From NCBI GenBank assembly GCA_965116495.1, contig OZ220696.1, positions 2,304,001 to 2,368,000 on the forward strand: 64,000 nucleotides of DNA, written 5' to 3'. Origin of the DNA: Gammaproteobacteria bacterium. GTDB taxonomy: Bacteria; Pseudomonadota; Gammaproteobacteria; Eutrophobiales; Eutrophobiaceae. Below are positions 10,524 through 33,233 of the stretch, piece by piece. The notes under the pieces were generated by a model. It worked only from the letters and a program-made list of their open reading frames with translations, was not told the DNA's origin and did not search any database. The position numbers were made by a program, and so were the translations under genes. Every line of letters begins with the position of its first letter. Position 1 is the first letter of the stretch.

Positions 10524-10777
10524 AAACCACGTTTTCTTCCACGGCGTGGGAGAATTATCTTTACTGGCAGAAGACAGACAAAGCAACCCTGAAACGAATC
10601 AATACATTAATCAAGGCAATTCAGCGCGATCCCTTCTCAGGAATTGGAAAACCGGAATCACTGAGACATAACCTGACAGGCTATTGGTCCAGACGGATCA
10701 ATGACGAGCATAGAATCGTTTACAAGGTTGCCGATAATCACTTGTATATCGCTCAACTCAAGTACCATTACGAGTAG
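10520..10777 (+). CDS. yoeB: YoeB/Txe mRNA interferase toxin
   Basis: AWENYLYWQ, GIGKPESL, WSRRINDEHRIVY, C-terminal YHY; ATGA overlap with yefM. Confidence 0.95.
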   Translation: MKTTFSSTAWENYLYWQKTDKATLKRINTLIKAIQRDPFSGIGKPESLRHNLTGYWSRRINDEHRIVYKVADNHLYIAQLKYHYE

Positions 10778-12086: not shown

Positions 12087-13247
12087 TCATCGCCCGGCAG
12101 CGTCCCGCAACTGCTCCACCTTGTCCGTTTTCTCCCAGGTGAAGTCCGCTTCCTCGCGGCCGAAATGGCCGTAGGCCGCGGTCTGCCTGTAGATGGGCCG
12201 CAACAGGTCCAGGTCCCGGATGATGGCCTTGGGGCGTAAATCAAACGTGTCCTGCACCAGGGCTTCGAGCCGGGTTTCCGGGATGACGCCGGTGCCAAAG
12301 GTGTTGACCATCAGGCTGACCGGCCTGGCGACGCCGATGGCGTAGGCGATCTGGATCTCGCACCTGTCGGCCAGGCCGGCGGCGACGATGTGCTTGGCGA
12401 CGTAACGCGCTGCGTACGCGGCGGAACGGTCCACCTTGGACGGGTCCTTGCCGGAAAATGCGCCGCCGCCGTGGTGGGCGATGCCGCCGTAGGTATCCAC
12501 GATGATCTTCCTGCCGGTGAGACCGGTATCGCCTACCGGACCGCCGATGACAAAGCGTCCGGTGGGATTGACCAGGTAGCGTGTTTTGGCGGAGAGCATA
12601 TCCGCGGGCAGGACCGGTTTGATGATTTCCTCGATAACCCCTTCGGTCACATTGTCATGGCTGACACCGGCATCGTGCTGGGTGGACAGGACGACCGTAT
12701 CGACTGCGACGGGCTTGCCGTCCTCGTATAACACGCTGACCTGGGATTTCGCATCGGGCCGCAACCAGGGCAGCCTGCCGGCTTTTCTCACCTCGGCCTG
12801 TTTCTTCACCAGCCGGTGCGAGTAGGTAATGGGGAACGGCATCAGCACGTCGGTCTCGTTGCAGGCATAGCCGAACATGAGGCCCTGGTCACCGGCGCCC
12901 TGATCCAGGTCAAGCCCCTCTCCCTCGTTCACGCCCCGGGCGATATCCGGCGACTGCTTGTCAATCGACAGCAGTACCGAACAGCCATCGGCGTCAAACC
13001 CCATCTCCGATGAGTCATAACCTATTTCCCTGACGGTCTGTCTGGCTATCTCCGGATAGTCGATGTTCGCCTGCGAGGTAATCTCGCCGGACAGCAACAC
13101 CATGCCTGTCGTGACCAGAGTCTCGCAGGCTACCCGCGCATGGATATCCTGTTCCAGCAATGCATCCAGAATCGAATCGGACACCTGGTCGGCGACCTTG
13201 TCCGGGTGACCTTCGGAGACGGATTCCGAGGTAAACAGGTAATTCAT
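12087..13247 (-). CDS. metK: S-adenosylmethionine synthetase
   Basis: [44 protein letters not shown]. Confidence 0.98.
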
Positions 13248-13474: not shown

Positions 13475-13503
13475 TTGACTTTAATACCTTAATCTGGGAT
13501 AAT
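13475..13503 (+). promoter_or_regulatory. Sigma70 promoter of the RiPP precursor
   Basis: TTGACT-17 nt-GATAAT with extended -10 TGn; GAGGAGG RBS before ATG 13576. Confidence 0.6.
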
Positions 13504-13575
13504 ACTGGCCGTTAAACACTTAGTTAAAGTAGTTTAATCCGCTTATAAAATTTTCAACTCGTGAGGAGGATAGAT

Positions 13576-13827
13576 ATGAAAAGTGGCGACGACATGCTAA
13601 GACAACTCGTTGATAAATCCGCTGCTGACGCGGCGTTCAGGCAACAACTTCTCTCTGATCCCAAGACTGCCATAACCGCTGAGTTGGGCATTACCATGCC
13701 CGAATCGATGAATGTTGTGGTACATGAAAGCGACATGCAAACTGTTCACGTTGCTTTGCCGCCGGATCCGAATATCACCGAGGAACAACTCGAAGCCGTT
13801 TCGGCCGGCCTTTGCTGCTGCTGGTAA
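13576..13827 (+). CDS. srpE: NHLP-leader (proteusin) RiPP precursor, core LCCCW; SrpE-like
   Basis: Nitrile-hydratase-like leader (DAAFRQQLLSDPK...VVVHE...HVALPP), double-glycine-type site ITEEQLEAVSAG, core LCCCW. The core matches my recall of the sponge-microbiome srp precursor. Confidence 0.92.
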   Translation: MKSGDDMLRQLVDKSAADAAFRQQLLSDPKTAITAELGITMPESMNVVVHESDMQTVHVALPPDPNITEEQLEAVSAGLCCCW

Positions 13828-13897
13828 GTCCACCCCGATAAACAGTCGGTCTGGATTCGGAATATCCGAATCCGAATAGCTTACCGGGACTTCACAT

Positions 13898-13931
13898 GCC
13901 CTCGTCCCTTTCAGGGGCGGGGGTTTTGTTT
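13898..13931 (+). terminator. Rho-independent terminator after the precursor
   Basis: gccctcgtccct-ttc-aggggcggggg followed by ttttgttt. Confidence 0.65.
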
Positions 13932-14162
13932 GCCTGCCATAGAACCGATATAGGATCGCCCTGAGTCGGTCGTACCCACAGCGTCCCATGAATTTCCGCT
14001 GAAGGCAGTTCGAAGAGCGATAATTCCTTTCGGGAGACGTTCCCGAAACACATTAGAGGTATTACGGTCAGCGGATAGCTACCGTTGGCGCCGTGACGGT
14101 TGGAATGTTAAGCATTATTACGCCTTGCATCGGCAGAACGGGATCCCCGCAGGTAACGGAAT

Positions 14163-15281
14163 TTACTGGTAAACCGCCCCGGAAAGCACCATAAATACAT
14201 AGGCCTTGGCTTTTCGAAGCTGATTGTCTGATATGACCAGCTTCACATGGTGAATGCCCCGCAGCATAATATAACGCCCGGACTTCGCAAAAAGCGGTGT
14301 CGGTTTTGAGACCCAGCCGGCTAGCGCCTTGATCTTGTCGGAAAACACAATATCCTCATGGTCCAGGGCTTCCAGGAAGGGTGCCCAATCGGTCAAACCG
14401 TCAAGCCAATAGCGCGAATCCTTGGTATATCTCTGCTTTACAATGAGTGTGAGACCAAGCGTCGGACCAATTCCATCCTCCTGCACGTCAATATTCAATC
14501 CAATCCTGACAATGTTCACGCGGTCTGTGAAGCGTGAAATCACTGAATCGACGGCTGTGATCTGACCGGGCCAACCCGTATCTTCCAGGTATCGGGCTAC
14601 CTCCTGCTTCGATTTGAAGCCCATGACAGCGAGGCGAATTGCCCGAGAGCGGGACGGAAATACTCCAAACGAGTCCATGCGCGTATCTTCCGGCTGCGCA
14701 AGGTAAGCTTGTTGGAGGTACTTCCGTTCTGCGTCGTTAATCTCCCAGCCTACGCAGGAAGCGAGTGCGTCACTCACCATAACGACGTCATCTTCCTGAC
14801 CGTTGGCGCCGGTAATCGGGCGTTCGCCGGGCCGCAAGAACATTCCGGGGAAAGAACCTTGTCCCTCCCGCGCAGATCCTATGTCATATTCCAGCATAAG
14901 TTTCTGACCGACAATTTCACGCAGGGGTGAGTTTTCGGTTTCCATTTGCTCGCAGGCCCGCACAATTGCGCCGGCGGTCTCATCTGTGTTATCGGTCCGT
15001 GCGCACTCCCGGAAAAACTCTGCCGACCTGGTTCCACCGGCCAGGGAAGCGCCGAAATCCGCCTCCGGTTTGGGCGAATGCAACGGCAGTTCGAAGCCGA
15101 ATGGCAAAGCGGCCATTGTAATCGGAAGTTTTCCGGCGCAGTCGAGTATGCATTCCCATTCAGATGCCCCGATAAGAACCGGCGAAATCCTGTCCCGAAA
15201 GTGCCCAAGCAAATCACCCATGGTGCCGCCTTCCTCGGCGAGACGTTCCTGGGTAAGAATCACAGCTTCGTCAATATTCAT
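14163..15281 (-). CDS. Putative RiPP prenyltransferase (ABBA-barrel-like); function inferred
   Basis: 372 aa with GFELPL..ADF, MLEYD, F.SR..IRL, YL...GW, LNIDV..GP.LG, HHVKLV..KAKAY. Alternating alpha/beta pattern; ATGA overlap with the terpene-cyclase-like gene. Confidence 0.5.
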   Translation of the reverse strand: MNIDEAVILTQERLAEEGGTMGDLLGHFRDRISPVLIGASEWECILDCAGKLPITMAALPFGFELPLHSPKPEADFGASLAGGTRSAEFFRECARTDNTDETAGAIVRACEQMETENSPLREIVGQKLMLEYDIGSAREGQGSFPGMFLRPGERPITGANGQEDDVVMVSDALASCVGWEINDAERKYLQQAYLAQPEDTRMDSFGVFPSRSRAIRLAVMGFKSKQEVARYLEDTGWPGQITAVDSVISRFTDRVNIVRIGLNIDVQEDGIGPTLGLTLIVKQRYTKDSRYWLDGLTDWAPFLEALDHEDIVFSDKIKALAGWVSKPTPLFAKSGRYIMLRGIHHVKLVISDNQLRKAKAYVFMVLSGAVYQ

Positions 15282-16588
15282 ATGGTCTTCTCCAGCAGGA
15301 ATTCAACCAGACGCTCCAGGGCTTCGATGCAAAATGCGGAAGTCACCGATTCGGAACCATGCCCAATCTGCCCTACCAGACCCCACTTCAACTCCTGATC
15401 GCCAAACGCGAGAAACTCCGGCCAACTGCCGTCCTCACGTTGCGAGTTCAGGAACCTTTTCACCTGGTGTTCTGCGTCGATGCTTTGCAGGCTTCCAATA
15501 TTGTAGAGAGCAGACACTGCCTGGGCAGTCTGGAGGATATTGCCGAATTCCCCCTTCCCGTCGCGCAGGCCGAGGATACCATCCGCAAGCGCCGGGCGTA
15601 ACCGGTCAAGAGCGGACGGCACGCGCAGCAGGGCGCGGGTGATTGCATAGTAGATTGAGATCGAATCAGGATACCACTTGGACGTTCCATCCAGGCTGTC
15701 TTCAATGATCAAACCTTCCAGCCATTGCCGGGCTTCCCTGGTTTCCGGACGCTCACCGAGATAGGCAATGACATTCGCATTAACCACAGGATCGGCTTCG
15801 ATACGAAAAGTAGATACTACATCAGGTTCATCATCCGCGAGTATCCAGGTCTGGAAAAGACCTTTTTCGTCGCGATTTGCCAGAATTCCCGGGACATTCC
15901 TTTCCAGCAATATCCAGGGGTGATTCCCGATGACAAGTGAGCAGACTGTGGAACTATCGAGGTCCTGCGGCAGATGTCGGTAGTAGCGCCATAATCCGGG
16001 ATATTCCATGGTATCGACAAGATACGCCCTGGTGGTGGCACAAATGGCTTTAGCCTTCGGTTCATCACAGCCTTCCAGGGCAAGTACACAGAATGCCGAA
16101 ATAAACGGGGGTCTTTCGAAATGCCTTGGGATGTTCGGGTCGGCTATATTGAAACGGATGCAGTGCCAGGCCCCGTTTTCATCGATCCCGGATTCCAGGA
16201 AATCGAGACCGCGACGGATGCTTTCCCTGCATGCATCGGCAAGCGTCCCGGGCGTGGCGTTGGATAACAAGGCGCCTGCGCCACCCGGTTCGGGAGGGCG
16301 GACAGGCGGCGCCGGATCATAAAGTGTCTTGCGCAGGAACTCGAGTGATTGTGAGCCGGTTCTCGCCTCCTGCCGTTCAGCCGCGCTGAATTTGCTGCGC
16401 GGCGGAAGCGCCAGATGCGCAACGGAAACGGTATCTTCGTGCACGCGAATCTCATGATCTTCGTCCAAGGTCACACCAAGTTCCTCTTCGATGGTTTCTT
16501 TGGGTTTCTCAAGCAAACGATTGCGAAGATCATCGTCTTCGACGGCTCTTGATATGAGGTAATTAATTGTGTGAACAGGATACTTCAC
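15278..16588 (-). CDS. NHLP-leader domain fused to class II terpene cyclase-like (prenyltransferase/squalene oxidase repeat) domain
   Basis: Residues ~1-78 mimic the precursor leader (EDDDLRNRLLEKPKETIEEELG..IRVHED..AHLALPP). Then GLDFL..IDENGAW, GLWRYY..LPQDLDSST (DxDD position), DPVVNANV, SQREDGSW (QW motif), GSESVTSAFC. Confidence 0.75.
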   Translation of the reverse strand: MKYPVHTINYLISRAVEDDDLRNRLLEKPKETIEEELGVTLDEDHEIRVHEDTVSVAHLALPPRSKFSAAERQEARTGSQSLEFLRKTLYDPAPPVRPPEPGGAGALLSNATPGTLADACRESIRRGLDFLESGIDENGAWHCIRFNIADPNIPRHFERPPFISAFCVLALEGCDEPKAKAICATTRAYLVDTMEYPGLWRYYRHLPQDLDSSTVCSLVIGNHPWILLERNVPGILANRDEKGLFQTWILADDEPDVVSTFRIEADPVVNANVIAYLGERPETREARQWLEGLIIEDSLDGTSKWYPDSISIYYAITRALLRVPSALDRLRPALADGILGLRDGKGEFGNILQTAQAVSALYNIGSLQSIDAEHQVKRFLNSQREDGSWPEFLAFGDQELKWGLVGQIGHGSESVTSAFCIEALERLVEFLLEKTI

Positions 16589-16595
16589 TTCCGCT

Positions 16596-19544
16596 TCAGG
16601 CGACCTGCCTCTTTACCAGTTCTTTGAATACTCCTTCCTCCTCCATGAGTTCGTTGAAGGATCCGCTCTGCACAACTTTTCCGGCCTGCATCACAAAGAT
16701 TCGATCAGCCTGTTGCAATGAGGACAGGCGGTGGGCGATAACGATCCGGGTCGAGGTGAGGAGCGCCAGGTTCTGCATGACCTCGGCCTGGTTTTCGTTA
16801 TCGAGCCAGTTGGTTGCCTCGTCAAGCAGCATGACCCGCGGGCTGGCGAGCAGTGAACGGGCGATGGTGACGCGCTGGCTCTCGCCACCCGAAAGGACGG
16901 CGCCGCTGGACCCGACCATGGTCATCATGCCCATGGGCATCGCCTTGATTTCCTTTTCTATTCCGGCGGCACGGGCCGTCTGCCACACTTCCTCTGTTGT
17001 CGTCGGCTCGTGGTGCGCGACGATATTGTCCCAAACATCCTGGGGATGGAGACGCACTGACTGCGGCACCGAGCCAACTTTCCGGCGCACTTGCTTCAGG
17101 TTCAGGTGCCTCAGGTCACGCCCGTCATAATAAACCGCGCCGGCAGTTGGCGAATCGATGCCGAGGGCAAGCCGGAACAAGGTACTCTTGCCGGCGCCGG
17201 ACTCGCCGGCGATCGCGATAAATTCGCCGGGTCGCGCGCGAATAGTGACATCGTCGAGGATCAACGGGCCGTCGGGATCGTAGCGAAAGGAAATACGGTC
17301 GAACAGGACTTCGCCGCCCAGACGTTCAACCGGCTCACCTTCAACGGCTGCTTCAGGAACTGTGGCGAGCAGCGGGCGCATCTGGTCGAACGCCGGCAGC
17401 ATGGCGGCAATAGCGCCGAAGGACTCGCCAAGGCGGGCGATTGCGGACTGGAAAGCGATGAAGACAACGTAAACGACGAGAAAATCGCCGACAGGAACGT
17501 TGCGGTCACCCACCGCGGCCACTGCGAAAAGCAATGCCCCGCCGGCGAGAAAGGGGAGCGCGGCAGCGAATGCCCGCGAGTGCCCCTCAAGTGCGCCCAG
17601 TTCGATTTCTGCGCGTTTCTGTTCGCGATAATCCCGGGCCCAGATGGCGAATGCCGACCCTTCCGCATTTTCCACACGCAGCTTGGCGATGCCTCCCACG
17701 ATCTGGAACAGCCGGCCGGATACACGACGTACAGCGCTGATCATCCGCCCGTACGGTGCAACCTGGCGCAACCCAATGGCGACGGTGACCAGCAGGGAAA
17801 CCAGGCTGAAGCCAAGGGCGATGACCCCGAGGGTGGCATCGTAGAAGAAGATGACGCCAAAAACCGGCAACAGGAAAATGATCGACAGCAGGCTGTCGGC
17901 GATGACTCCCTGCAAGCCGTCGCGAAGATTCTGGAATGTCATCCCCGACATGGCCAGGTCGCCGGCCGGATAGCGGTGCAGAATGCTTGACGGTAGGCGC
18001 ATGAGGCGGTCCCAGAAGGCAGCTTCGACCCTTGATGCCGAACGCCCCTCGAGCCGCATCAGCGCCGATCCCTGCAGCAGGTGCAGCAGTGCGCCGAGCA
18101 GGCCGAACGCCGCCAACGTCACGGCCACGGCATACAGCGCGCCGGCGCTTCCCCCCCCGCCCCCGATATGATTCGCAACGAAACCAAGCGCAACTGCCGG
18201 CAGCAGTTTGACCAGGCCGCCCGGAAGCCCGGCCAGCACCAGCCGCAGTAGGTCCGCGGCCGTTCCTTGCATGGCGATCCCCAGCAGGTCTGCCGGTTTT
18301 ACGGGTGCCGACGGCAATGGCCGGTAGAACACCCAGGCTTCGTCCTTCAGCGCCTCAGCACGAGCCGCCGTAACCCGAACGCTGCGCTTGGTGACCGGAT
18401 CAACTTCCCGGTAGCGTCCGAACATTCCCGGTATCAGTGCGACCGGCTGGTCGTCCCCGGCGCGGAATGCCAGTAGTGCGTTGCTGTCACTGCGCCACCA
18501 GTTGCCCGCGGCCTCGAAGCGCACGCGCCGGGCGCGTACCCCTGACGAATCAAGCACGTCTACGAGGCGGATCGGTGAATCCGAAGGTCGGGAGCGCGCT
18601 GGAATCCTGAAATCGATGCCTTCATGACGGCCGACGATTTGCAAGGCATCCGCCAGCACCGTGTCCTCGACGCTGGCCTCCCGGTCGATCGGCAGGTCAT
18701 AGATATTGAAAAGCCGCTGCCGGGCAGCTTGTTCGGCCGTGCGGCGGCTGGTTGTCCGCTCGCGCTCGAGATTCGCATCATCGACCACGGCCAGTCGGCG
18801 ATTAAGGCGTTCCAGGTTAAAGGCAAGCGCGTGAAAGGAGGCGAGCGCCGGCAGCAGCATGCCTTGCTGGGCCAGTGTTTCGGTTGATTTGCCGGAAACT
18901 GTCGCCTCGTCGAACAAGGTGAGCCAGTTCGTCCGCGTCAGTGGTATCAACGCTTCGCGCGAGCCGCCTGTCTCGGCAAGTTGCGCCGGGTCGACCATAT
19001 CCATGAACAGGCTTGCTCCGAGGGACGGTTCGGACACCCATACCACGCCGCGTCGCACGGACAGCGTACAAGGGCCCAGTGACTGCGTCAGACCGGGTTC
19101 GGCCAGCGCAGTCGGTCGCGGCAGGTGGCTGACGAAACGCGAAAGTGTGTCAGTCATGTCGGTGAGCCAGGTATCGGCCTGTTGCGCCAGTTCTGCCGGA
19201 TGAACCTCGGACAGCAGGGATGCCGGCAGCCGTTTCAGAAGGGTGCCCGGCAACCCCTTGGCGATCAGGCTGAGCGTGGTGACTTTGCCATTGTCGTCCT
19301 GTTCGTCCGCTACGACACCCGGCAACAACCTGCCCGATTCGCAACGCAGCAGGTGCTGCGGCGCCGCCTGCTCTACCCCGTCCCTGAATTCGACCAGGAA
19401 CAGATCGACGGCACCCTGGTCAATGAACCAGACATTGTCCGCATCGTCGAGCGTTACCGGCAGGTTGCCGGCGCAAGGCACGGATGTGCCGGAGTGGGCG
19501 GCAAGCCGGCTTATTGATGCGTGTTCCGGCATGGCGTCCTGCAT
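16596..19544 (-). CDS. NHLP bacteriocin system ABC transporter permease/ATPase
   Basis: N-terminal cNMP-like region, membrane domain, GESGAGKS, LSGGESQR, LLDEAT; companion of the peptidase-ABC. Confidence 0.9.
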   Translation of the reverse strand: MQDAMPEHASISRLAAHSGTSVPCAGNLPVTLDDADNVWFIDQGAVDLFLVEFRDGVEQAAPQHLLRCESGRLLPGVVADEQDDNGKVTTLSLIAKGLPGTLLKRLPASLLSEVHPAELAQQADTWLTDMTDTLSRFVSHLPRPTALAEPGLTQSLGPCTLSVRRGVVWVSEPSLGASLFMDMVDPAQLAETGGSREALIPLTRTNWLTLFDEATVSGKSTETLAQQGMLLPALASFHALAFNLERLNRRLAVVDDANLERERTTSRRTAEQAARQRLFNIYDLPIDREASVEDTVLADALQIVGRHEGIDFRIPARSRPSDSPIRLVDVLDSSGVRARRVRFEAAGNWWRSDSNALLAFRAGDDQPVALIPGMFGRYREVDPVTKRSVRVTAARAEALKDEAWVFYRPLPSAPVKPADLLGIAMQGTAADLLRLVLAGLPGGLVKLLPAVALGFVANHIGGGGGSAGALYAVAVTLAAFGLLGALLHLLQGSALMRLEGRSASRVEAAFWDRLMRLPSSILHRYPAGDLAMSGMTFQNLRDGLQGVIADSLLSIIFLLPVFGVIFFYDATLGVIALGFSLVSLLVTVAIGLRQVAPYGRMISAVRRVSGRLFQIVGGIAKLRVENAEGSAFAIWARDYREQKRAEIELGALEGHSRAFAAALPFLAGGALLFAVAAVGDRNVPVGDFLVVYVVFIAFQSAIARLGESFGAIAAMLPAFDQMRPLLATVPEAAVEGEPVERLGGEVLFDRISFRYDPDGPLILDDVTIRARPGEFIAIAGESGAGKSTLFRLALGIDSPTAGAVYYDGRDLRHLNLKQVRRKVGSVPQSVRLHPQDVWDNIVAHHEPTTTEEVWQTARAAGIEKEIKAMPMGMMTMVGSSGAVLSGGESQRVTIARSLLASPRVMLLDEATNWLDNENQAEVMQNLALLTSTRIVIAHRLSSLQQADRIFVMQAGKVVQSGSFNELMEEEGVFKELVKRQVA

Positions 19545-21754
19545 CAGCCTGATTTGACCAGTTTGTAATACATGCCGGCCTGGTCCGCAATCAACTCGTC
19601 GTGGGTGCCGCGCTGCACTTCGGCGCCCTTGTCGAGTACTATGATCTCATCACAATCCCGCACCGTGCTCAGCCGGTGCGCCACGATCAGGCAGGTGACA
19701 CCGCGACGCCGTAAGGCATCATCCACATATTCCTCCGTGGCGGCATCGAGTGCGCTGGTCGCCTCGTCCAGAATGAGCACTGTCGGATTGCCCACCAGCC
19801 CGCGGGCGATTTCCAGCCGTTGTCGCTGGCCGCCGCTGAAATTCGCCCCGCCTTCCTCGACGAGGGTCGCGTATCCATGCGGCCTGATCAGGATTTCCTC
19901 ATGGATGCAGGCATCCCGTGTTGCGGCAATGATGACTTCATCCGGAACGGCCGGGTTCCACAAGGTGATATTGTCTCGCACGGACGCGGAAAACAGCACG
20001 GCCTCCTGGTCCACCATGGAAATGGACCGCCGCAGTACTTCCTCGGGGATCTCATCCCGCGGATGGCCATCTAGCAGTATTTCACCAGACCATGGCTGAC
20101 TGATTCCCGAAACGAGACGCGCCAGGGTCGACTTGCCGGAACCGCTTGGACCGACCACGGCAACCCGCTGCCCCGGTTTGATCACGAGGTTGAAGTCCTT
20201 GATCAAGGGCGGTCGGCTCTTGTTGTAACCGAAGGTGACGTTGCGCAATTCGAGACTGCCCGCAAGCTGTAGCCGGCCGTTGAACGTGGGGATTGCCTGC
20301 GCTTCCGGACTGCGGCGGCTGAACACGGGGTCTTCAGCGGTCCTGGAGATGTCATCCAGCCGTTGCAAATCGGTTTCGAGCGCCTGGCGTTTGTCGGCGA
20401 ACTCCAGAAACCGCCCAACCGGCGCCAGAAACATCTCTGCCAGTATGTAGAACCCGACCAGCGCCCCCAGGGTCATTGCTCCGGTCATGACCAGGCTCCC
20501 CCCAAACCCCAGGATTGCCGCGGCGCGAAATGCCGCGATCAGGCCGGGAAGCGCGCTATTGACGGCGCCCAGTTCGGAGTAGCGTTGGCGCGCATGAAGT
20601 TCGCTTGCCTGCTGGCCGCTCCAGCGCGAAAAAAAACGATCGTCCGACCCTGTCATGCGCAGGTTATCCGCATGACTCAACATCTGCATACCAACGCCGA
20701 TCAGCAATCCCTGCTCGCGCCTCATTGCCTGGCTTCGAACTTCCCTGAGCGCGCTCAGGAAGCGGGCCAGCACTCCGTGCAGGAGAGCCAGCAACAGCAC
20801 GATCAGCGTTAGCAGGACATCGTAGGCCAACATCGCGACAAGCAACACTGCGCTCATGGCCATGTCTACAATGAGCACAAGAAACTGCTCCGTCAGGTTT
20901 TTCGCGATGCGATCGATGGACGAGACCCGGTCGGTGAGGTCGCCGGCCAGCCTGTGTTCAAAAAACTCCACCGGCAGCCGCAGCAGCCGCGACAGGCCCC
21001 GGTTGTAGCCGATCACCGAAACCCGGACCGCGAGCCGCTTGAGGAAACGGTGCTTGAGCAAGGTCAGGACGTATACCAGGATGCCGCCGCCAATCAAGGC
21101 GGCCACCAATCCGCCCCAGGGTCCGTGGTTTTCCAGAACGTCGTCTACGAAAACACCGAGAGTTGCGGGAACGACAAGCGCCAGCAACGTCAACATGAGG
21201 CCACAGGCAATCACCCCGGTAAGCACGCCCCACGATTCGGCGAGCAAGGCGCCCAGTTGCCTGACTAGGTTTGGCCGGTCACCGCCGGGCTTGAAATCGG
21301 GACCGCACTTGAAGCGAAGCATAATCCCGCTGTAGCCCTTGGTAAACTCTTCTGCGCTAACCCTGCGTTTCCCTGTGGCAGGGTCATTCAGGTAGAAACT
21401 TTGGCCATCGAACCCTTCGAGCACAACGAAATGGCTGAATTGCCAGAATAAAATCAGCGGAAGCTCCACCCGTTTCAGCTGATCGGCGCGCAGGCTGAGC
21501 CCTTTGCATTCAAGACCATAGTACCTGGCGGCGCGCAGGATGCTTGCCGCACTGCTGCCGTCACGGCTCACTTCACATTTATCGCGTAATTCAGTCAACG
21601 GCGCCCAGCGCCCGAAATAAGCCAGGACGATCCCGAGACAGGCGGCGCCACATTCCGACGCATGCATCTGCAACAGAACCGGTGTGTTGACCTTCTTTTT
21701 CAAAACGTCCGAAGACGCCTTATCCCTGGCTCCCTTGGGGGCGCTCGATGGCAT
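19544..21754 (-). CDS. NHLP export ABC transporter with C39 peptidase domain
   Basis: QMHASECGAACL, HFVV, NDPA (C39 Cys-His-Asp), GPSGSGKS, FSGGQRQR. Confidence 0.93.
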   Translation of the reverse strand: MPSSAPKGARDKASSDVLKKKVNTPVLLQMHASECGAACLGIVLAYFGRWAPLTELRDKCEVSRDGSSAASILRAARYYGLECKGLSLRADQLKRVELPLILFWQFSHFVVLEGFDGQSFYLNDPATGKRRVSAEEFTKGYSGIMLRFKCGPDFKPGGDRPNLVRQLGALLAESWGVLTGVIACGLMLTLLALVVPATLGVFVDDVLENHGPWGGLVAALIGGGILVYVLTLLKHRFLKRLAVRVSVIGYNRGLSRLLRLPVEFFEHRLAGDLTDRVSSIDRIAKNLTEQFLVLIVDMAMSAVLLVAMLAYDVLLTLIVLLLALLHGVLARFLSALREVRSQAMRREQGLLIGVGMQMLSHADNLRMTGSDDRFFSRWSGQQASELHARQRYSELGAVNSALPGLIAAFRAAAILGFGGSLVMTGAMTLGALVGFYILAEMFLAPVGRFLEFADKRQALETDLQRLDDISRTAEDPVFSRRSPEAQAIPTFNGRLQLAGSLELRNVTFGYNKSRPPLIKDFNLVIKPGQRVAVVGPSGSGKSTLARLVSGISQPWSGEILLDGHPRDEIPEEVLRRSISMVDQEAVLFSASVRDNITLWNPAVPDEVIIAATRDACIHEEILIRPHGYATLVEEGGANFSGGQRQRLEIARGLVGNPTVLILDEATSALDAATEEYVDDALRRRGVTCLIVAHRLSTVRDCDEIIVLDKGAEVQRGTHDELIADQAGMYYKLVKSG

Positions 21755-21755
21755 C

Positions 21756-22307
21756 TTATAGTCGCGTCGTAAGGAACAGTTCTATCGGAGATTGCCTGCC
21801 AAGCCCGATAACCAGCCGGCATTCCCTGCTGGTGAGGGAGTCCGGCTCAAGACCTTCTTCGAGAACGATATCGACACGGTGCAGGGACTCAGGCGCCTCG
21901 GGCAGAAACGCCGACATCCCGCCGGAAATGGGTATAGCGGAAATTGCCTTGACTGCACCGTCCAGTGTGCCTGCTTTTGCATCTTTCGTGTCCAACTCAA
22001 CCATTACCGGCATCCCGGCCTCGATTGACGGCGCGGTGCTGCTCTGCATCCAGACAAGGGCCTGCACAAGCCGGCTTCCTTCAGGTGAGGTTTCACCTTG
22101 TTCAATAAGTATGCCGTTGAACTCAATACTACGGGCTATGTTGCCGAAGAGAAGCCATGCTGAGAGTATTAACAGGAAAACGGCAATTGCCGCGACAAGC
22201 AGGCGTTCATGCGGTGTGGAAATCGTCAGCAGCCGGTCGAGTTGCTCGCGTTCTTCCTTCGCCTCAGCTACCGTATCGTGAAATGATTCAAACGGATTGT
22301 TGAACAT
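21756..22307 (-). CDS. Short NHLP secretion (HlyD-like) protein lacking the coiled-coil hairpin
   Basis: EQLDRLLTISTP motif, one TM helix, G...GMPV.V beta-barrel, C-terminal QSPIELF; only 183 aa. Confidence 0.7.
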   Translation of the reverse strand: MFNNPFESFHDTVAEAKEEREQLDRLLTISTPHERLLVAAIAVFLLILSAWLLFGNIARSIEFNGILIEQGETSPEGSRLVQALVWMQSSTAPSIEAGMPVMVELDTKDAKAGTLDGAVKAISAIPISGGMSAFLPEAPESLHRVDIVLEEGLEPDSLTSRECRLVIGLGRQSPIELFLTTRL

Positions 22308-22433
22308 GGCCGGGAATATCCCCCCAAATGTGTGTAATCCAGTAAGACCAGGAAAATCTTATTCGGCTAACTCGATGATTTGCTTGATGTTAAAATAAAT
22401 CAGCTTTTTTAACAAGCAGTAATTCCGGGGATG

Positions 22434-22574
22434 GATGATGTGTGCCTTCCTGGCACACACCCTATGGGCGTCCTTCGGACGTCCAAATCGGCTCCTGGCG
22501 GATTTGTGGGGTCAGAGTAAAATATTGAAGCGCATTGCCGGTGGCTGGATCGGTGGTGATATTACTCTGACCCC
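22434..22574. repeat. Two adjacent REP/MITE-like palindromic elements
   Basis: 22434-22508 multi-hairpin unit (gggcgtccttcggacgtcc; caaatcggc..gcggatttg) related to 43030-43102; then ggggtcagagtaa (22508-22520) ... ttactctgacccc (22562-22574), a perfect 13-bp IR. Confidence 0.7.
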
Positions 22575-22591
22575 TGCTTTGCAGATGTTTC

Positions 22592-24865
22592 TCACGCAAT
22601 TACAGGGACGGGATTCAGTTCAGCCTCCCCGGTGGGGCAATCCCGCCAGCCCATCTCAACCGGTACGTCATATAGGCGTCCCGGTGCGAAGCGTTCCCAG
22701 AAGTGACGCAGGCCCGGCACGATCACGCGCGCCACGGGCATACCGATGTCAGGCCGGGTCTGGTCGAGCACCAACAATTCCATCCCCCTCACTTCGACCA
22801 ACCCACGGCACCATTCCACATCGTCTCTCAGGTCTTCCGTATCCGGAACCGAATAATCGGAACTCTGGCTCAACCTGGCATCGCCTGCAGGCGCGAGATG
22901 GGGGTGGTCGGCCAGTTTGCCGTTCTTCCACCACCACAGACACATCGGATCATCGACCCCGTACCCGCTTTGAGCATTGCCCGGGCGAGGGACCCAGGTG
23001 AGGCACTGGTTCAATTCACACACGGCCCGCAGCGCCGCAATCCGGGGGTCGGCGTGTGCGCCTGCGCCATAGATGATGTCTTCGGCCACGCCATCGTTGC
23101 TGCGGGACAGTGCAACAAAGGCAGGAATTCCAAGGTCGCCGGTAAGGTCCAGCAGCCACATTTCGCGATTGTATTGATGATAATAACCTGGGGCAGATGC
23201 CAGGTACTCGTCAGCAAAGCTATCCAGGTCCACTCCGGGCCTTTGCAGCCGGTTGTACCACCAGATTGCGACGGCATCGCGTTCGACCAGTTCAAAAAAC
23301 CCCTGCAGAACAGCTTCTTCCAGGGTGTTCCCGGCTGCACAGCCGTTGGAGTCGGACCAAAGCCCCGAGGTTCCCCGCTGCTCCGGAGTCATTCCGTAGA
23401 GGATGGCTGTCGGTAACCAGCATTGCCGGTCCCGGGTGAGCGACCATACCGGAGACCAGTCCAGTTCATGCTCCGGGTCGAAGCGCGCCGGAACGACATT
23501 ATACGGGTGGCCGCGTGCGTTGATCTCTTGCGCATGGTCCAGTTGCCGGTCGCTGAACAACTGGACGTCGTTCGGGTGGATCGCCTCTCCATCCGCCGCT
23601 CCGGAAAAATCCGCCAGGCGCCTGCGGCAACGGATTTCATCACCGTGGAAAGCGCCGGAATAGCGCTCGACCGCTTCGCACAGCGCACTGACCTCGGATT
23701 GCTCCGCGCTGCTGCCCTTACCTGCACTCTTGCTGCGCAGGCTGCGCCGCAATGAGCTCAGGTTCTTGATTCTCAAGGCAAGATTGCTGCCCGCCCAATG
23801 TACATGCAGCCAGGAGTCTGTTCCGGGAGTTGTGCGTGAAACCCAACTGACCACTCCACTCACCGGACTGACCAGGTGCCGGTACTTTTCAAGCGTCTCC
23901 GCAGGTGTAGCCGCCCGCACTCCGCCGCTGTTGCGAAACTGTTTCGGGCTCGCCTGCAATCGCACCGGCGTCGCCGGCCGATCAGTTTTATAGAGTTCCT
24001 CGTTTCCGCAGACCGGGCATTGCGGACGGCGCATGACCCGGTGATGTTCACTTTTCATGCCGACAACATCCAGTGTGATCGCATGGTCATGCAACGGCGC
24101 CGCATCCCCAAGGACAAACCACCTGGCGATCTCAATGGCAACAGTTCCGCTGACGACATCCAATGCCAGGGGTTCGGCTACGTTCGGACGAAACGCGGCC
24201 GCCTCGCCACAGTGATTTCGCACAAAGGAATGGACCTCCTGGTGGTTTCGAATACGGTAGGAAAGGCAGGCCCAACACGGACTTTTCTGCGCAGGCCGGA
24301 ACACAGGGCCAAACAGCGGTCGTAATCCTGCAGGCCGGACCAGCACCCATGGGATGCCCGATTCCAGGTGCTCCCGGTTGACGGCGGCAAACTCATCATC
24401 AAGATAGTCGGAACCTGCGTAAATGGACAGGGACGGGCGGTTTGTACCGACTGTAATACCCATGCCCTCAAGCCGTGTCGCGAGACGGCCGTCGTCACCC
24501 TGGATTACTACCTGCGCTTCCTGCAATCGCTCTTCAACCTGGCGCGGGGATGCACCCTGCGAGGACCAGAATGCCGCCCTGCCCCGTTCCATGTCATAAT
24601 CGCCGGATACGGTGTATCCCCTGGATTCCAGGAAAGTCAGGGCTTTGCGGACATCCGTCTCCGGATGCACCCCGTCTAGCGCATCAACAATACTTTCCCG
24701 GGAACGGCAACCGTCAAGCAACGGCAGGAGATCCCCATATACCTGCCCATGCAGGAGCGTGTTGAATGTTTCGGAAACCAGGAGCACCTGCCCGGCGCCG
24801 ATAGAGCGGTGCTCAAGGTGCGGCGCAAGCACCGGCCGTTCAATCTGGTGCGGATTAACAGCCAA
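22592..24865 (-). CDS. srpC: Fused E1-like/YcaO cyclodehydratase (TOMM C-D fusion), SrpC-like
   Basis: N-terminal RRE-like region, GPVF..PCWACL, RRPQCPVCG, YcaO motifs SAGKG, EAVERYS, SNGCAAG, ELVERD, RAVCELNQ, RVIVPGL, Pro-rich C-terminus NPVPVIA. Confidence 0.92.
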   Translation of the reverse strand: MAVNPHQIERPVLAPHLEHRSIGAGQVLLVSETFNTLLHGQVYGDLLPLLDGCRSRESIVDALDGVHPETDVRKALTFLESRGYTVSGDYDMERGRAAFWSSQGASPRQVEERLQEAQVVIQGDDGRLATRLEGMGITVGTNRPSLSIYAGSDYLDDEFAAVNREHLESGIPWVLVRPAGLRPLFGPVFRPAQKSPCWACLSYRIRNHQEVHSFVRNHCGEAAAFRPNVAEPLALDVVSGTVAIEIARWFVLGDAAPLHDHAITLDVVGMKSEHHRVMRRPQCPVCGNEELYKTDRPATPVRLQASPKQFRNSGGVRAATPAETLEKYRHLVSPVSGVVSWVSRTTPGTDSWLHVHWAGSNLALRIKNLSSLRRSLRSKSAGKGSSAEQSEVSALCEAVERYSGAFHGDEIRCRRRLADFSGAADGEAIHPNDVQLFSDRQLDHAQEINARGHPYNVVPARFDPEHELDWSPVWSLTRDRQCWLPTAILYGMTPEQRGTSGLWSDSNGCAAGNTLEEAVLQGFFELVERDAVAIWWYNRLQRPGVDLDSFADEYLASAPGYYHQYNREMWLLDLTGDLGIPAFVALSRSNDGVAEDIIYGAGAHADPRIAALRAVCELNQCLTWVPRPGNAQSGYGVDDPMCLWWWKNGKLADHPHLAPAGDARLSQSSDYSVPDTEDLRDDVEWCRGLVEVRGMELLVLDQTRPDIGMPVARVIVPGLRHFWERFAPGRLYDVPVEMGWRDCPTGEAELNPVPVIA

Positions 24866-25151
24866 GACCCTGTGACATCTGTGTATAACTGGTTAGAGGA
24901 ACCCCGCACATCCGGTCCTGGTCCGACTTGTCTTCGGCCGGCAAACTTGTCAGATGTTGCAAATGGGGAACCAGGCTCGGCCAGCTGCCTTCGCCCACCC
25001 CTATGGTCGGGATGTGGGAGTCGTATATGTGGTGCAGCTCATGATCCGGGTCAGGGTGAAGGCGAGTCACGGCAGCGGCCGCCAAAGACCCTGCGGTTCC
25101 CCGGCCAATCACTGCGATGTTCTTTAACGACTTGCTGCCAGGATTTATCAA
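24855..25151 (-). pseudogene. srpI: Flavin-dependent (tryptophan) halogenase, SrpI-like, with large in-frame internal deletion
   Basis: 98 aa only: FAD motif IAVIGRGTAGSLAA and PTIGVGEGSW joined directly to a C-terminal tail RMCGVPLTSYTQMSQGLGC. No catalytic Lys region and no WxWxIP motif; the stop still overlaps the YcaO start. Confidence 0.85.
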
Positions 25152-25367
25152 ATCAGGTGATTCTCACAAGTGTCCGTTGAAAGTTCTGCACACACCAACA
25201 ACTTGTGTAATTTTATCATGGTTTTCGGACCATTGTGTTCGGACCACTTTAACGGAATGCCAATCAAGATCAAATGGGCATCAGGCGGCGCAGACCAATC
25301 GTATCCTCGTGACGCAGTCGGGCAAAGCAGTCCGGGAAAGAGCATAAAGGGACCCGGTTGAAACTGA

Positions 25368-26312
25368 ATGAGCAATTCAGCCGACAAGTGGTTATACTAT
25401 GGTGACCATCAGGACACCCCAACCTTGAACACCACTCGCGAAATACCTCTTTCCGAGCATGAACGCTCGGTAATTGAACACTACGACAAAATGACCAGGG
25501 TGTTCTATCTCCAGTGGAGTTCCGAGCATTTTCATTTCGGTGTATTCAAGCCCGGGGAACGCCCCAGGCACAACGAGACTCCGAAAGAATCGGACGGACA
25601 TGCAAGAGCACTGGAGCGCATGGTGGAAGTCATAGTTGCCCCAGCCGGGATTGAGGGACACCATCATGTGGTGGACGCCGGGTGCGGAGTGGGCGGAACT
25701 GCCTTTCACCTGGGCAGGACGCGGGACTGCAAGGTCACGGGCGTGAACCTGAGCAAGACGCAACTGGAGATTGCCAGAAGTAAGGCAGTTAATGCCGGCC
25801 TGGGTGATCGGATAGACTTTAAGTACGCGAACTGTTCCCGGAGTCTGCCGTTCGCAGATGGCTCCGTGGACGTGGTTGTCAATATCGAAAGCGCCCGTCA
25901 CTACAGTGACCGAAGAACATTTCTCCACGAGGTATACAGGATCCTGAAACCGGGAGGAAGCATTGTGGCTTCAGACTGGGTGGTGCATGACGTAATACCG
26001 GACAGCCAGCACAAACGTTACATTCAACCGTTATGCGAGGACTGGATGCTGTATAACCTGGAGTCCCAGTCCTCGTACACCCGGTTGCTGCAGGAAGCGG
26101 GTCTGGAAGTGATTGAATTTGAGGGATTCAACGGAATGGAGTTTGACAACCTGCATCTCCTCACAAACACCTACCAGTCCCTGGGACTGCTGCGAACCGG
26201 TTACATGAAGTCGCCTGTTTTCGCCAAACTGATGACTCAGCTGGAAAGATTGTGTGTTGCCTGGCGACACAGTTACCTGGGCATCAAACGCTACTGCGCC
26301 GTGAAAGGTTAG
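25368..26312 (+). CDS. Class I SAM methyltransferase, sterol C24/tocopherol/RebM-like
   Basis: HYD...W..HFHFG, VVDAGCGVGG, VTGVNLS..QL, LPFADGSVD, ESARHY, EVYRILKPGG. Confidence 0.85.
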   Translation: MSNSADKWLYYGDHQDTPTLNTTREIPLSEHERSVIEHYDKMTRVFYLQWSSEHFHFGVFKPGERPRHNETPKESDGHARALERMVEVIVAPAGIEGHHHVVDAGCGVGGTAFHLGRTRDCKVTGVNLSKTQLEIARSKAVNAGLGDRIDFKYANCSRSLPFADGSVDVVVNIESARHYSDRRTFLHEVYRILKPGGSIVASDWVVHDVIPDSQHKRYIQPLCEDWMLYNLESQSSYTRLLQEAGLEVIEFEGFNGMEFDNLHLLTNTYQSLGLLRTGYMKSPVFAKLMTQLERLCVAWRHSYLGIKRYCAVKG

Positions 26313-26339
26313 GGATCAGGGGCTGGCCCGGATTTCTTA

Positions 26340-28757
26340 TCAGGCATTGAAGAGTGCGTCGATGTCGGTAGCGGCGCGTGTTGCCGTTACTTTAATCGCG
26401 GCGCTCAGTGCATCGAAGTCGTCTGTTCCGCAGCTTCTGGCAATGACTGTCCTGGCCATCGGCCAGGTGGCATTATCCACGTTGTTATCTTCTCCCAGCA
26501 AGCGCAGGATGCCGCGCAGGTTGCGCCACATTCTTGCCGCCTCAGCCAACCGTTGCGCGCAATCGTCAGGTATCACCTCACCCTCGCCGGCGCTCTGGAA
26601 TACGGAAACCGTACCTGCGGCAATAACCTCCGGCGCCGTTGCAGCATGGGTCACAGTCAGATATGCGGCAGCGCGTTCTACCTCCCGGAGACCGCCGCGC
26701 ATATTCTCGAATGATTGCAGTCCGGCCTCCGGCGTGCCCTCCCCTGCCTGACGCAATTCATTCAGCAACGCATCACGAGCGGCGCCATTGGCCAGGATTT
26801 CAAGGCGCGTATCCTCAAACCGTTTTCCCAGCCCGGCATCCCCTGATGTAAAAACACAGCGCGACCGTAAGAGTTCCAGCAACTCTCCTGTTGAGGAGTT
26901 GCTGTAATGGTGTTCCGAAAAGTCAGCGAGAGAACGGACAATTGTCTCAGCCCTGCCCGGCAACATCGGCTGCAACAGCAGGTTGTCCCGTGACAGGGCG
27001 CGCAACGCGTCGAGAGAGCGCTCGCTCAATGTCCTGTAATAATCGGGTGAGCCACTGCCGTCATAAAGGAACATGATGCCAAGCCCGGCGCCCAGCGTCG
27101 CTTCTCCACTTGCAATCTCTCCCAGAACCACTGCCGCCACACCGCCTTCGAGCCGCCGCTGGGTAAAATCCTCCACCGCAGCCGAGAGAACACCGGCGAT
27201 CGAGGCCTCAGCAATGTTGGACAGCGCCGTCCCCGCTTCAACCGGTGACAGGTTGCCGCGCAATGTGTGCATGGCAACCTGCAGGACCTTGTCGTTCGAC
27301 CAGTTGCGCATGATCTCTACCGCATCTTTCGTGTCCTGCACCGGGATATCTGCAACCTGCTCCTTCATTTCTTCAGCAGTGAATTCCAACGTCCAGTACA
27401 CGCGCGTCAGACCGCGTCGAGCAATTAATTCAAACTCGGGACTCGGCCCGAATCCGTCCGGCAGGTCAAGATCGGTGAATTCCCTGTCCTGAAGGATGTC
27501 GAGCAACGCCGGGGTACGGTTTATCCATTCGGAAAGCCGTGGCGATGCTGCCATGATCGCGGAAATTGTATCGAACATATCCGGACGCGCGTCGAATGCA
27601 GGGCTGTCGTAAACGTTCCAGTCCTTGACCTCCGGATAATAACGCTGCCTCCACTTGTCGACCAACGGGTCCATCGTCTCGAACCAGCGGCGGGGGGACA
27701 TCGCCAGGCCGCCCATTTTGCCGTAGGGCCCGGGCAGTTGCGGCGATTGATCCTCACCCCAGTGCTGTAACAGCGGATAAGGCCGGCTTGCAGCGGCATG
27801 GTGGTCGGCATGGCGCTGCGCGTTGTAATAGATCCAGTTGAAAAACCTGTAGTCGCTGCTCCAGGAATGTTGCGGCTGGGGTCGCTCGAAGCGGCCGTTG
27901 GGAAGGCGGATACGCCGTAATCCGTAATGCTGGACATAGTTGATGATCTTCATTGACAGGACCGAACTGGCGCTGAACATCAGGAATGCCAGGATTCCCC
28001 AGATACCGCCGAACCAGTATCCGAGGGCATACCAGAACGTAACCATGAGGAAATAACGCCAGAACGGATTGGTGTAATGCCAGACCGGGAGGTGGCGGCG
28101 CGCCAGCCTGTCGCGCTCGAAACGCCAGGCTACGACGAGACTGTTCGCCACGTCCCGGGGGAAATATTCCCAAAAGCTCTGCCCCTTGCGCGCCGAGCCG
28201 AGATCTGCAGGCGTGGCGACCAGGGGGTGATGTATATAGACATGCTCCGTGGCGTAGTGCGGGTAGGTGACCGAAGCCAGCAGGAACTCGCCGAACCTGC
28301 GCTCCCATTCATAGCGCTTATGTACCAGCTCATGACCGATAATGAACACCATCTGGGACGCCATGCCGAGAGCAAATATCATCAGCACGGCCTCCCACAC
28401 GGCCAGGTGGCCGCCAATAAAAATCTGCCAGAGTACGAATACGAGGACCACCGGCCACAGTACGGCCCACATCCATACAGCCAGGTTGTATACGTACAAC
28501 TGGCTGTCACGGGTACCCCACGGATCCATGTTGCGTTCTTCCAGGCCTAAATGGAGATCGAGCCTGTTCTCAAGCCAGACAAACAGGAACGGCCCCATGA
28601 TCCACCAGCCCCCGTAAAGCGCTGCACAAATCACCAACGGGAAAATCAACAGGAGCAGGTAATGCGGGAGCGCATTCAGGACCGACGGCTGGACAAACTC
28701 CTGCCCGCCGACGGTTTCGGCGCTCGTGCCACCAGGGTCCGCGCTATACTCTGCCAT
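26340..28757 (-). CDS. AlkB-type membrane diiron monooxygenase/desaturase fused to a degenerate GlnE-like nucleotidyltransferase domain
   Basis: All AlkB His boxes present (GHELVH, EHVYIHH, NYVQHYG, QRHADHH). The C-terminal ~420 aa carry GlnE-like motifs (LSNIAEA, VVLGEIASGE...IMFLYD, RGGLREVE, LAEAARMWRNL..ILRL). Confidence 0.85.
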   Translation of the reverse strand: MAEYSADPGGTSAETVGGQEFVQPSVLNALPHYLLLLIFPLVICAALYGGWWIMGPFLFVWLENRLDLHLGLEERNMDPWGTRDSQLYVYNLAVWMWAVLWPVVLVFVLWQIFIGGHLAVWEAVLMIFALGMASQMVFIIGHELVHKRYEWERRFGEFLLASVTYPHYATEHVYIHHPLVATPADLGSARKGQSFWEYFPRDVANSLVVAWRFERDRLARRHLPVWHYTNPFWRYFLMVTFWYALGYWFGGIWGILAFLMFSASSVLSMKIINYVQHYGLRRIRLPNGRFERPQPQHSWSSDYRFFNWIYYNAQRHADHHAAASRPYPLLQHWGEDQSPQLPGPYGKMGGLAMSPRRWFETMDPLVDKWRQRYYPEVKDWNVYDSPAFDARPDMFDTISAIMAASPRLSEWINRTPALLDILQDREFTDLDLPDGFGPSPEFELIARRGLTRVYWTLEFTAEEMKEQVADIPVQDTKDAVEIMRNWSNDKVLQVAMHTLRGNLSPVEAGTALSNIAEASIAGVLSAAVEDFTQRRLEGGVAAVVLGEIASGEATLGAGLGIMFLYDGSGSPDYYRTLSERSLDALRALSRDNLLLQPMLPGRAETIVRSLADFSEHHYSNSSTGELLELLRSRCVFTSGDAGLGKRFEDTRLEILANGAARDALLNELRQAGEGTPEAGLQSFENMRGGLREVERAAAYLTVTHAATAPEVIAAGTVSVFQSAGEGEVIPDDCAQRLAEAARMWRNLRGILRLLGEDNNVDNATWPMARTVIARSCGTDDFDALSAAIKVTATRAATDIDALFNA

Positions 28758-32135: not shown

Positions 32136-32165
32136 GATTTTAGTTACCGGGAACCAACTACGCGG

Positions 32166-33191: not shown

Positions 33192-33233
33192 AACTTCAAC
33201 CGTTTATTTTATCCGCTGTCTTCCGCATCGGGA

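Follow-up and report, generated by a model that had tools for sequence, protein, structure and literature searches.

A brominase-deleted srp-type proteusin cluster with a predicted ABBA prenyltransferase and a leader-fused terpene-cyclase homologue

The cluster and its two candidate terpenoid enzymes

The 64,000-nucleotide stretch of a gammaproteobacterial genome analysed here (contig OZ220696.1, positions 2,304,001 to 2,368,000; referred to as the window) carries, between its positions 13475 and 28757, a proteusin cluster of the srp type, which encodes a predicted ABBA-fold prenyltransferase and a class II terpene-cyclase homologue and from which the tryptophan brominase has been deleted; its product may be a tri-thiazoline peptide bearing a cyclised terpene. 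The layout is convergent: a lone plus-strand precursor gene faces a minus-strand run of a halogenase stub, a YcaO gene, a HlyD-like gene, two ATP-binding cassette (ABC) exporter genes and the genes of a 436-residue and a 372-residue protein, and from the HlyD-like gene through the last of these the neighbours either overlap or lie at most 7 bases apart. Every gene that the initial annotation had listed for the locus is real; the HlyD-like gene (22307-21756) and the N-terminal leader-like domain of the 436-residue protein are additions to that list. The genome is a single contig of 4.34 Mb, 99.5% complete, with a single copy of each cluster gene.

The precursor gene (13576..13827, plus strand) starts at an ATG preceded by GAGGAGG, which resembles a ribosome-binding site, and encodes an 83-residue, SrpE-like NHLP/proteusin precursor (TIGR03793, 65.9 bits against a cut-off of 50.9) in which the core LCCCW follows directly on Ala-Gly, bearing out the LCCCW precursor first noted from the letters. 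Identity to 49 aligned relatives is 66-84% or more, with an invariant core, and a search of the genome found no second precursor. A sigma70-like promoter candidate lies upstream (13475..13503, plus strand; 10/12 consensus matches, 17-nt spacer, TG extension), as a pattern match only, the count of such sites (three, against a shuffle mean of 1.2) being weak alone; a terminator-like hairpin with a 12-pair stem and a T run follows the gene (13898..13924, plus strand).

The 372-residue protein (14163..15281, minus strand) belongs to a family without a Pfam model: Pfam and NCBIfam searches with the protein gave no match, a Pfam search with 106 family members gave no meaningful one, and a PDB search with the family profile returned nothing. 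AlphaFold2, run on a 106-row alignment, yields a model with a predicted local distance difference test score (pLDDT) of 94.9, as compared to only 37 for a single-sequence fold. ABBA prenyltransferases make up every row among the Foldseek matches listed for this model and also ranks 1-19 of a wide fold search over 48,161 chains, the first unrelated fold appearing at Z 5.5. The best matches are indole prenyltransferases (MpnD, Z 16.2, root-mean-square deviation (rmsd) 4.7, 288 residues aligned; CymD, 15.7; 6-DMATS, 15.6), with the cyanobactin prenyltransferases ranking lower (PatF, 11.4; PagF, 11.2), and the nearest named leads in the Atlas are the Trp_DMAT and PTase_Orf2 clusters, at 0.87-0.89. 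An ABBA prenyltransferase fold is well supported by this model, which lands among the very enzymes outside which the initial annotation would have abandoned its proposal; prenyl transfer, with its donor and acceptor, would be the corresponding activity. One search returned 933 homologues; at 50% clustering the number was 560. A complex prediction with the precursor scored 0.15 against a mark of 0.32. The translational coupling to the 436-residue gene described earlier holds here, where the two share an ATGA overlap, but is not the general gene order in relatives: the upstream neighbour of the prenyltransferase homologue is YcaO in 42/70 cases and the cyclase in just 18/70, and a conserved cyclase-prenyltransferase coupling is accordingly rejected.

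The 436-residue protein (15278..16588, minus strand) combines an NHLP-leader-like domain (residues 1-78) with a single-domain class II terpene-cyclase-like domain carrying the motif D209-L-D211-S. Across 78 residues, in register from Met1, its leader-like domain and the precursor are 31% identical; the leader motif, ITEEQLEAVSAG in the precursor, reads FSAAERQEARTG in the 436-residue protein, so that an Arg stands where the L(X)4L-like motif, used by SrpI according to the accessible text of PMC12537861, has its second Leu. Because of this Arg, the domain is presumably left unprocessed. In the C-terminal domain, phmmer finds a match to the drimenol synthase 9MHS (E 1.9e-8) that places D211 on D323, the general acid of the drimenol synthase AsDMS, whose cyclase domain most closely resembles MstE (PMC12232559, accessible portions). 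D209, L210, D211 and S212 are invariant in 120/120 homologues (all at least 69% identical), and the Atlas neighbours are squalene-hopene cyclase C and AstC-like families. By these comparisons the domain is a class II cyclase homologue that keeps the catalytic Asp, which gives the earlier label "terpene-cyclase-like" a solved homologue and a conserved general acid. Among the phosphate ligands of AsDMS, R415 is matched in the alignment by K304 and Y416 by W305, whereas R368 and R370 fall, in a by-eye registration, on R262 and E264 (Glu264 in 119/120); R262 and K304 are invariant in the 120 homologues.

A peptide pathway that pairs an ABBA prenyltransferase with a single-domain class II cyclase of the MstE type recalls the prenyltransferase-cyclases NctPC and ChrPC, reportedly described by Hubrich and colleagues in Chem in 2024. 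As a review presents it in its accessible part (PMC13290415), NctPC consists of an ABBA domain and an MstE-like cyclase and acts on Trp; compared with this description only, the window has two genes overlapping by ATGA where NctPC is one polypeptide, and further differs in the leader-like domain of the cyclase, the tri-thiazoline core and a donor that is likely C15, not C20. AsDMS (9MHS, 9M7D), as described in the accessible text of PMC12232559, shares with the 436-residue protein the single beta-domain class II cyclase, the DxD(T/S) motif and the correspondence of D211 to D323; in contrast to AsDMS, the 436-residue protein has no HAD phosphatase domain, carries the leader-like domain instead, and retains the phosphate ligands only in part.

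The cyclodehydratase (22592..24865, minus strand) is an SrpC-like fusion of E1-like and YcaO domains (PF02624, TIGR03604, TIGR03882), which matches the cyclodehydratases LynD, TruD and MusD at E <=1e-147 (LynD at 7e-167) and is 60-66% identical to YcaOs that stand beside LCCCW cores and intact halogenases in other phyla. The azoline dehydrogenase is indeed missing, as noted at the outset: a ThcOx-type query from a relative's cluster found no match in the genome or in 80 related loci; generic nitroreductases are encoded elsewhere in the genome, outside the cluster. Export is represented by an NHLP ABC transporter with a C39 peptidase (19544..21754, minus strand; TIGR03796, 854.5 bits, over the cut-off; PF03412) in which Cys35, His108 and Asp124 are present, by a second transporter subunit (16596..19544, minus strand; TIGR03797, 671 bits, slightly below the cut-off of 709), and by the HlyD-like protein of 183 residues (21756..22307, minus strand; partial TIGR03794 match). 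The latter is a conserved short form, as its homologues at srp loci have 172-186 residues (n=64), and because it is short, export across the outer membrane may depend on other genes. Its length of about 183 residues at these 64 srp-type loci compares with about 300 residues in several of the clusters with Trp-less cores that are described below.

Beyond the stub lie a methyltransferase and an oxygenase. The S-adenosylmethionine-dependent methyltransferase (25368..26312, plus strand; PF08241) points away from the stub and towards the oxygenase gene, and adjoins the cluster in 8/8 srp-type genomes of the genus. Its nearest solved structures are 3BUS, MitM, a glucose O-methyltransferase, 5GM1, BezA and a geranyl diphosphate 2-C-methyltransferase (3BUS being RebM and 5GM1 TleD), a mixture that leaves O-, N- and isoprenoid C-methylation all possible. 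The oxygenase gene (26340..28757, minus strand) encodes an AlkB-type membrane di-iron enzyme (alkane 1-monooxygenase 8F6T, E 2.7e-55) fused to a degenerate GlnE-like domain. The four histidine boxes of AlkB are present, at residues 142, 171, 273 and 314, and recur in 56/56 homologues, which were themselves selected by two of those motifs. GlnE adenylyltransferases carry the DxD metal motif of nucleotidyltransferases; the GlnE-like segment after residue 545 is without DxD, and homologous segments mostly have one Asp or none. This GlnE-like half (window 26340-27400) is retained across phyla despite the loss of DxD, and is shorter in some homologues.

Spread across phyla and loss of the brominase

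Clusters with SrpE, SrpC and SrpI were reportedly described by Nguyen and colleagues in JACS in 2021. As far as the accessible text of four reports goes (PMC10286304, PMC10858898, PMC9426513, bioRxiv 10.1101/2023.06.09.544420), srp clusters occur in many phyla of sponge symbionts and their precursors are highly transcribed. The window cluster resembles these published descriptions, from which, and not from sequence comparison, the likeness to SrpE, SrpC and SrpI is drawn, in the NHLP precursor with LCCCW, the 252-bp precursor gene with an ITEEQL motif, the fused YcaO and the spread over many phyla; it differs in the deleted brominase, the added methyltransferase and an AlkB lineage shared with Trp-less clusters. 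The term 'prenyl' is absent from the accessible text of bioRxiv 10.1101/2023.06.09.544420 and PMC12537861, and a literature search found no account of prenylation or cyclisation of an srp product and no mature product; the original srp gene table may annotate both genes.

A cyclase-based genome scan gave 111 relatives, of which 80 were kept; gene counts refer to the 61 loci with full 10-kb flanks and are floors owing to the limits of the flanks. The loci come from metagenome-assembled genomes of many phyla (Pseudomonadota, Gemmatimonadota, Acidobacteriota, Nitrospirota, Verrucomicrobiota, Chloroflexota and others), one of them titled Spongia_Bin9. The prenyltransferase is found in 60 of the 61, the precursor in 59, the ABC pair in 52, YcaO in 51, the AlkB fusion in 40 and the methyltransferase in 2. 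Across all 80 loci the core is LCCCW in 66 and LSCCW in 1, with four second precursors bearing other cores, and of the halogenase matches at 57 loci 45 are intact, 7 cut by the locus edge and 5 broken. By these counts srp-type clusters have the prenyltransferase, the cyclase and the AlkB fusion among their core genes, normally accompanied by the brominase, and none of the three is a peculiarity of this locus. The description of the oxygenase and the methyltransferase as flanking enzymes survives for the second alone, which is lineage-restricted (2/61); presence in 40/61 full-flank loci makes the AlkB fusion a conserved cluster member and rules it out as an unrelated neighbour. Gene order is shuffled among the relatives, with the prenyltransferase staying adjacent to YcaO or the precursor; the remaining genes of the window cluster are full length and 77-98% identical to their relatives. 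An RND/MMPL-like gene, present at 34/80 related loci, was not seen beside the window cluster. In RNA runs from related strains, contigs match stretches of the genes for the precursor, the prenyltransferase, the cyclase, YcaO and AlkB, as well as the 5' end of the halogenase gene; having no silent-stretch control beside it, this coverage is not a measure of transcription.

A search of longer proteins found no prenyltransferase-cyclase fusion, which is weak evidence. A 691-residue cluster member was rejected as such a fusion, being without a cyclase part, and P0417, the only longer match, is a single YcaO(8-574)/prenyltransferase(121-370) chimera with the look of a deletion product. One genome (G025, L131:6069-11892) holds a locus for a ribosomally synthesised and post-translationally modified peptide with an NHLP precursor (core VCWSNCSDMGP), a radical SAM enzyme, a DUF2332 protein and a sulfotransferase, together with a distantly related prenyltransferase and a cyclase that lacks the leader domain; this distant pair, too, adjoins a Trp-containing core.

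The halogenase remnant (24855..25151, minus strand) covers positions 1-57 of 458 of PF04820. Compared with the intact gene of a relative (G014; intact relatives have open reading frames of 428-429 residues), an in-frame deletion of 978 bp fuses the first 73 to the last ~26 residues, with the junction at about 24933-24941. Contigs from three runs of two studies (X1 and X4, which may belong to the study behind the genome, and X5 from a different one) span this junction without differences, by which the stub is rejected as an assembly artefact, and no second halogenase copy was found in the genome. The functional Trp brominase (SrpI) of srp clusters is therefore absent here, and the earlier statement that the product is non-brominated stands on a gene that is truly lost.

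The loss is not confined to the window. Among the eight srp-type genomes of the genus, the brominase is intact in five and deleted in three, by 978 bp (window), 495 + 393 bp (G015) and 1044 bp (G019), with differing breakpoints. Supported branches in the trees of the second ABC subunit, AlkB and YcaO split G019 from the window, with intact genomes nearer; as G019 branches apart with intact genomes between, there were at least two losses. All four deletions are in frame (naive chance 1 in 81, inflatable by microhomology in codon phase), and Trp, prenyltransferase and cyclase are all retained in the three genomes. The deleted genes (24855-25151; L003:1543-1782; L004:1418-1813) keep their native stop, which in the window overlaps the YcaO start; in-frame deletions of this kind could reflect selection for translational coupling. 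The methyltransferase was rejected as a replacement for the brominase, as both genes are present in five genomes.

Sister clusters without tryptophan

Clusters with the same kind of leader, cyclodehydratase and prenyltransferase but cores without Trp are present in 16 genomes, six in the genus of the window and ten in a second genus, which are kin and not independent. Left out of this count are G007 (a 2-kb contig with a split prenyltransferase match and a core with internal Trp and Tyr), G432 (a Trp-less cluster plus fragments of LCCCW and cyclase), G436 and G439 (without a prenyltransferase match) and the distant G046, G067 and G201 (no precursor seen); G439 holds six weak NHLP-like matches (L171, L175, L177, L179-L181) in a genome without a prenyltransferase match. 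The cores read LSSGCG, MCTCI, LSSGA, LCTCV, LCCCI, RCCC, FGVALCC, LRCCI, LCCCGL, LCCC, LSCCC, LCCCL, LCCCT, LSCCL, LSCCV and LSCCI. Their prenyltransferases are 31-42% identical to the one in the window, YcaO is present in 16/16 and the AlkB fusion in 14/16. Across the family of Trp-less clusters as a whole (L112-L121, L129, L141-L159; G005, G006, G008, G011, G012, G020, G076, G425-G437), the number of ABBA prenyltransferases per cluster is between one and three, and methyltransferases, PF01593 flavin oxidases or a ThcOx-type dehydrogenase are frequent companions. The clusters of the 16 genomes yielded no brominase; the halogenase search of the 16 genomes of the second genus (g56) returned nothing with a query that found matches elsewhere. 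A metagenome scan with a Trp-less prenyltransferase as query returned nothing.

Linear cyanobactins such as aeruginosamide (AgeMTPT) and muscoride, which are said to carry prenylated and methylated termini, reportedly resemble the window cluster in that a short azol(in)e peptide is acted on by a LynD/TruD/MusD-like cyclodehydratase, by an ABBA prenyltransferase and by a methyltransferase, and they may serve as a model for the Trp-less sister clusters; they reportedly differ in having PatA/G proteases in place of an NHLP leader and C39 exporter, while the unannotated ABBA family, the AlkB fusion and the cyclase set the present clusters apart.

Judged from gene content, the cyclase mostly tracks Trp and the prenyltransferase does not. 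In the two genera sampled, the cyclase is present in 8/8 LCCCW genomes, and in genus g56 (n=16) the sole cyclase-bearing genome is the sole LCCCW genome (G432); in one further genome with the cyclase (G016) the precursor lies beyond the contig end. When 70 prenyltransferases of the srp type are compared with 22 from Trp-less clusters (16 genomes, counting the Trp-less cluster of G432 and not G433), 42 positions are common to both groups and 38 specific to the srp type, among the latter R201, D203, N263, I280 and the loop 285-290; position 280 is Tyr or Phe in 15/22 of the Trp-less group. The acidic and basic residues that the two groups share likely form the active site.

The window cluster itself has ties to both kinds. 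Its AlkB groups with the copies of two genomes with Trp-less cores (G008 and G012; support 0.937), and the methyltransferases found in the Trp-less clusters of the genus share 55-62% identity with its own; by these relationships the cluster is a mosaic. In the genus of the window, most clusters of either type are bracketed by a single-copy metK and by tandem pairs of AcrB and membrane-fusion genes (12087-13247 and 29049-37369 in the window), and as these flanks are common to both cluster types, they suggest one site of cassette exchange. Further out, at 10272-10777, lies a short gene pair that we take to resemble a YefM/YoeB-type toxin-antitoxin module.

Proposed product and alternative readings

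The window cluster works like an srp cluster joined to a split NctPC-type system, lacking the brominase of the former and the single polypeptide of the latter. The product tentatively preferred here, at somewhat less than an even chance, is a Leu-(thiazoline)3-Trp peptide without bromine to which a cyclised terpene of farnesyl origin is attached, probably at Trp; that an isoprenoid is borne by the peptide, whatever its site, is considerably more probable and can be called likely. In this proposal, YcaO would turn the three Cys into thiazolines, as in the srp homologues in print, and these would stay unoxidised because no dehydrogenase is present. The 372-residue ABBA enzyme would then add a prenyl chain, probably C15. 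The type of polyprenyl synthase is taken to set chain length, and since the only chain builders found in the genome are two synthases, one IspA-like and one IspB-like, farnesyl diphosphate (FPP) is the likely donor. Docked to the pathway through its uncleaved leader-like domain, the 436-residue enzyme would protonate the distal alkene with Asp211 and form a ring system, probably a drimane-like bicycle. Oxidation by AlkB and methylation by the methyltransferase, at sites that need not include Trp, would be the weakest step. As known for the family, the C39 ABC exporter would finally cut the leader at Ala-Gly and export the core. Bromination would not occur, as the brominase gene is deleted.

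Trp is the favoured site of attachment, given the indole prenyltransferases as fold neighbours, the precedent of NctPC, the link between cyclase and Trp, and the fact that Trp stays when the brominase is lost. The isoprenoid on Trp put forward in the initial annotation is thus still favoured, in a form weakened by the 16 Trp-less genomes and by G008. Several observations weigh against it. The 372-residue protein is only 7-16% identical to solved prenyltransferases, at an rmsd above 4 Å. E64, D75, E131, D133, R211, R216, H345, K347, K359 and Y361 of the prenyltransferase are kept in 20-22 of the 22 Trp-less homologues, and as these core residues stand beside Trp-less cores, the family needs no Trp. 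The cyclase is present, with an intact acid motif, in 1/16 Trp-less genomes (G008, core LCCC, an assembly of 220 contigs with 6% contamination). Its link to Trp could be one of co-inheritance, with Trp kept for the brominase. Lastly, the basic K304 at the place of R415 makes a free diphosphate a possible substrate of the cyclase.

The strongest competing explanation, which we consider unlikely though worth keeping in view, attaches the isoprenoid at a position that cores with and without Trp have in common, such as the C-terminal carboxylate, the amine of the N-terminal Leu once freed, or a Cys/thiazoline heteroatom; the cyclase would fold the chain and finish by losing a proton or taking up water, with no part played by the indole, and Trp would serve the brominase only. 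Prenylation of a peptide N-terminal amine is on record (review PMC13290415, accessible part). The shared prenyltransferase residues and G008 fit this explanation, as do the AlkB and methyltransferase relationships of the window and the unity of the wider family, which has in common the leader, a short Cys-rich core that usually begins with Leu, YcaO, the prenyltransferase (16/16) and AlkB-GlnE (14/16). It is opposed, however, by the distribution of the cyclase (8/8 LCCCW against 1/16 Trp-less genomes), by the 38 clade-specific positions of the srp-type prenyltransferases and by the indole prenyltransferases as their nearest folds. Leader removal by C39 exporters is, moreover, normally coupled to export, which disfavours the N-terminal amine.

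An improbable alternative is that the window holds a decaying copy, or that the two enzymes work off the peptide, so that the cluster makes a plain tri-thiazoline peptide or nothing, and the prenyltransferase and cyclase make a separate small molecule. One cluster gene is destroyed, no transcript of the exact window copy was seen, and cyclodehydration by SrpC in E. coli is only partial (PMC10286304, accessible text); but the other genes are full length and close to their relatives, the deletions in three genomes are without exception in frame, and the prenyltransferase remains beside YcaO or the precursor despite the shuffling of gene order.

Least probable of all is that the peptide is prenylated while the 436-residue protein works on a free isoprenoid diphosphate or as a scaffold, the peptide receiving a linear chain or a pre-cyclised unit: the closest solved homologue, drimenol synthase, does cyclise free FPP (PMC12232559, accessible text), and the invariant R262 and K304 could bind phosphate. 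Against this, the by-eye registration puts Glu264 (119/120) in place of R370 and Trp305 in place of Y416, a genome search found no geranylgeranyl diphosphate synthase for an allylic donor of the copalyl type, and the leader-like domain of the cyclase points to a peptide pathway. Drimenyl diphosphate is, furthermore, not allylic and hence a poor prenyl donor.

What is new here is an srp cluster with a deleted brominase, and the existence of sister clusters that have no Trp in their cores but retain YcaO and share the core residues of the prenyltransferase. It is further conceivable, though doubtful, that the unannotated ABBA family attaches its lipid to tiny poly-thiazoline proteusins at a site that is not aromatic, and that the leader-fused cyclase turns this chain into drimane-type rings; if true, an abundant cryptic product of sponge microbiomes would be a peptide-terpenoid hybrid joined in another way than those linked through Trp, and the family making it would be modular, with Trp, bromine, cyclase, methylase and oxidases exchanged in and out. 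Roles for the two unannotated srp core genes predict a terpene-bearing peptide, with masses to look for. The brominase-free version, which arose by more than one loss, suggests that the product can do without bromine, the terpene machinery being retained. Sister clusters without Trp, whose transferase has the same core, provide a handle on the site of isoprenoid attachment and would be a source of new peptide-lipidating enzymes.

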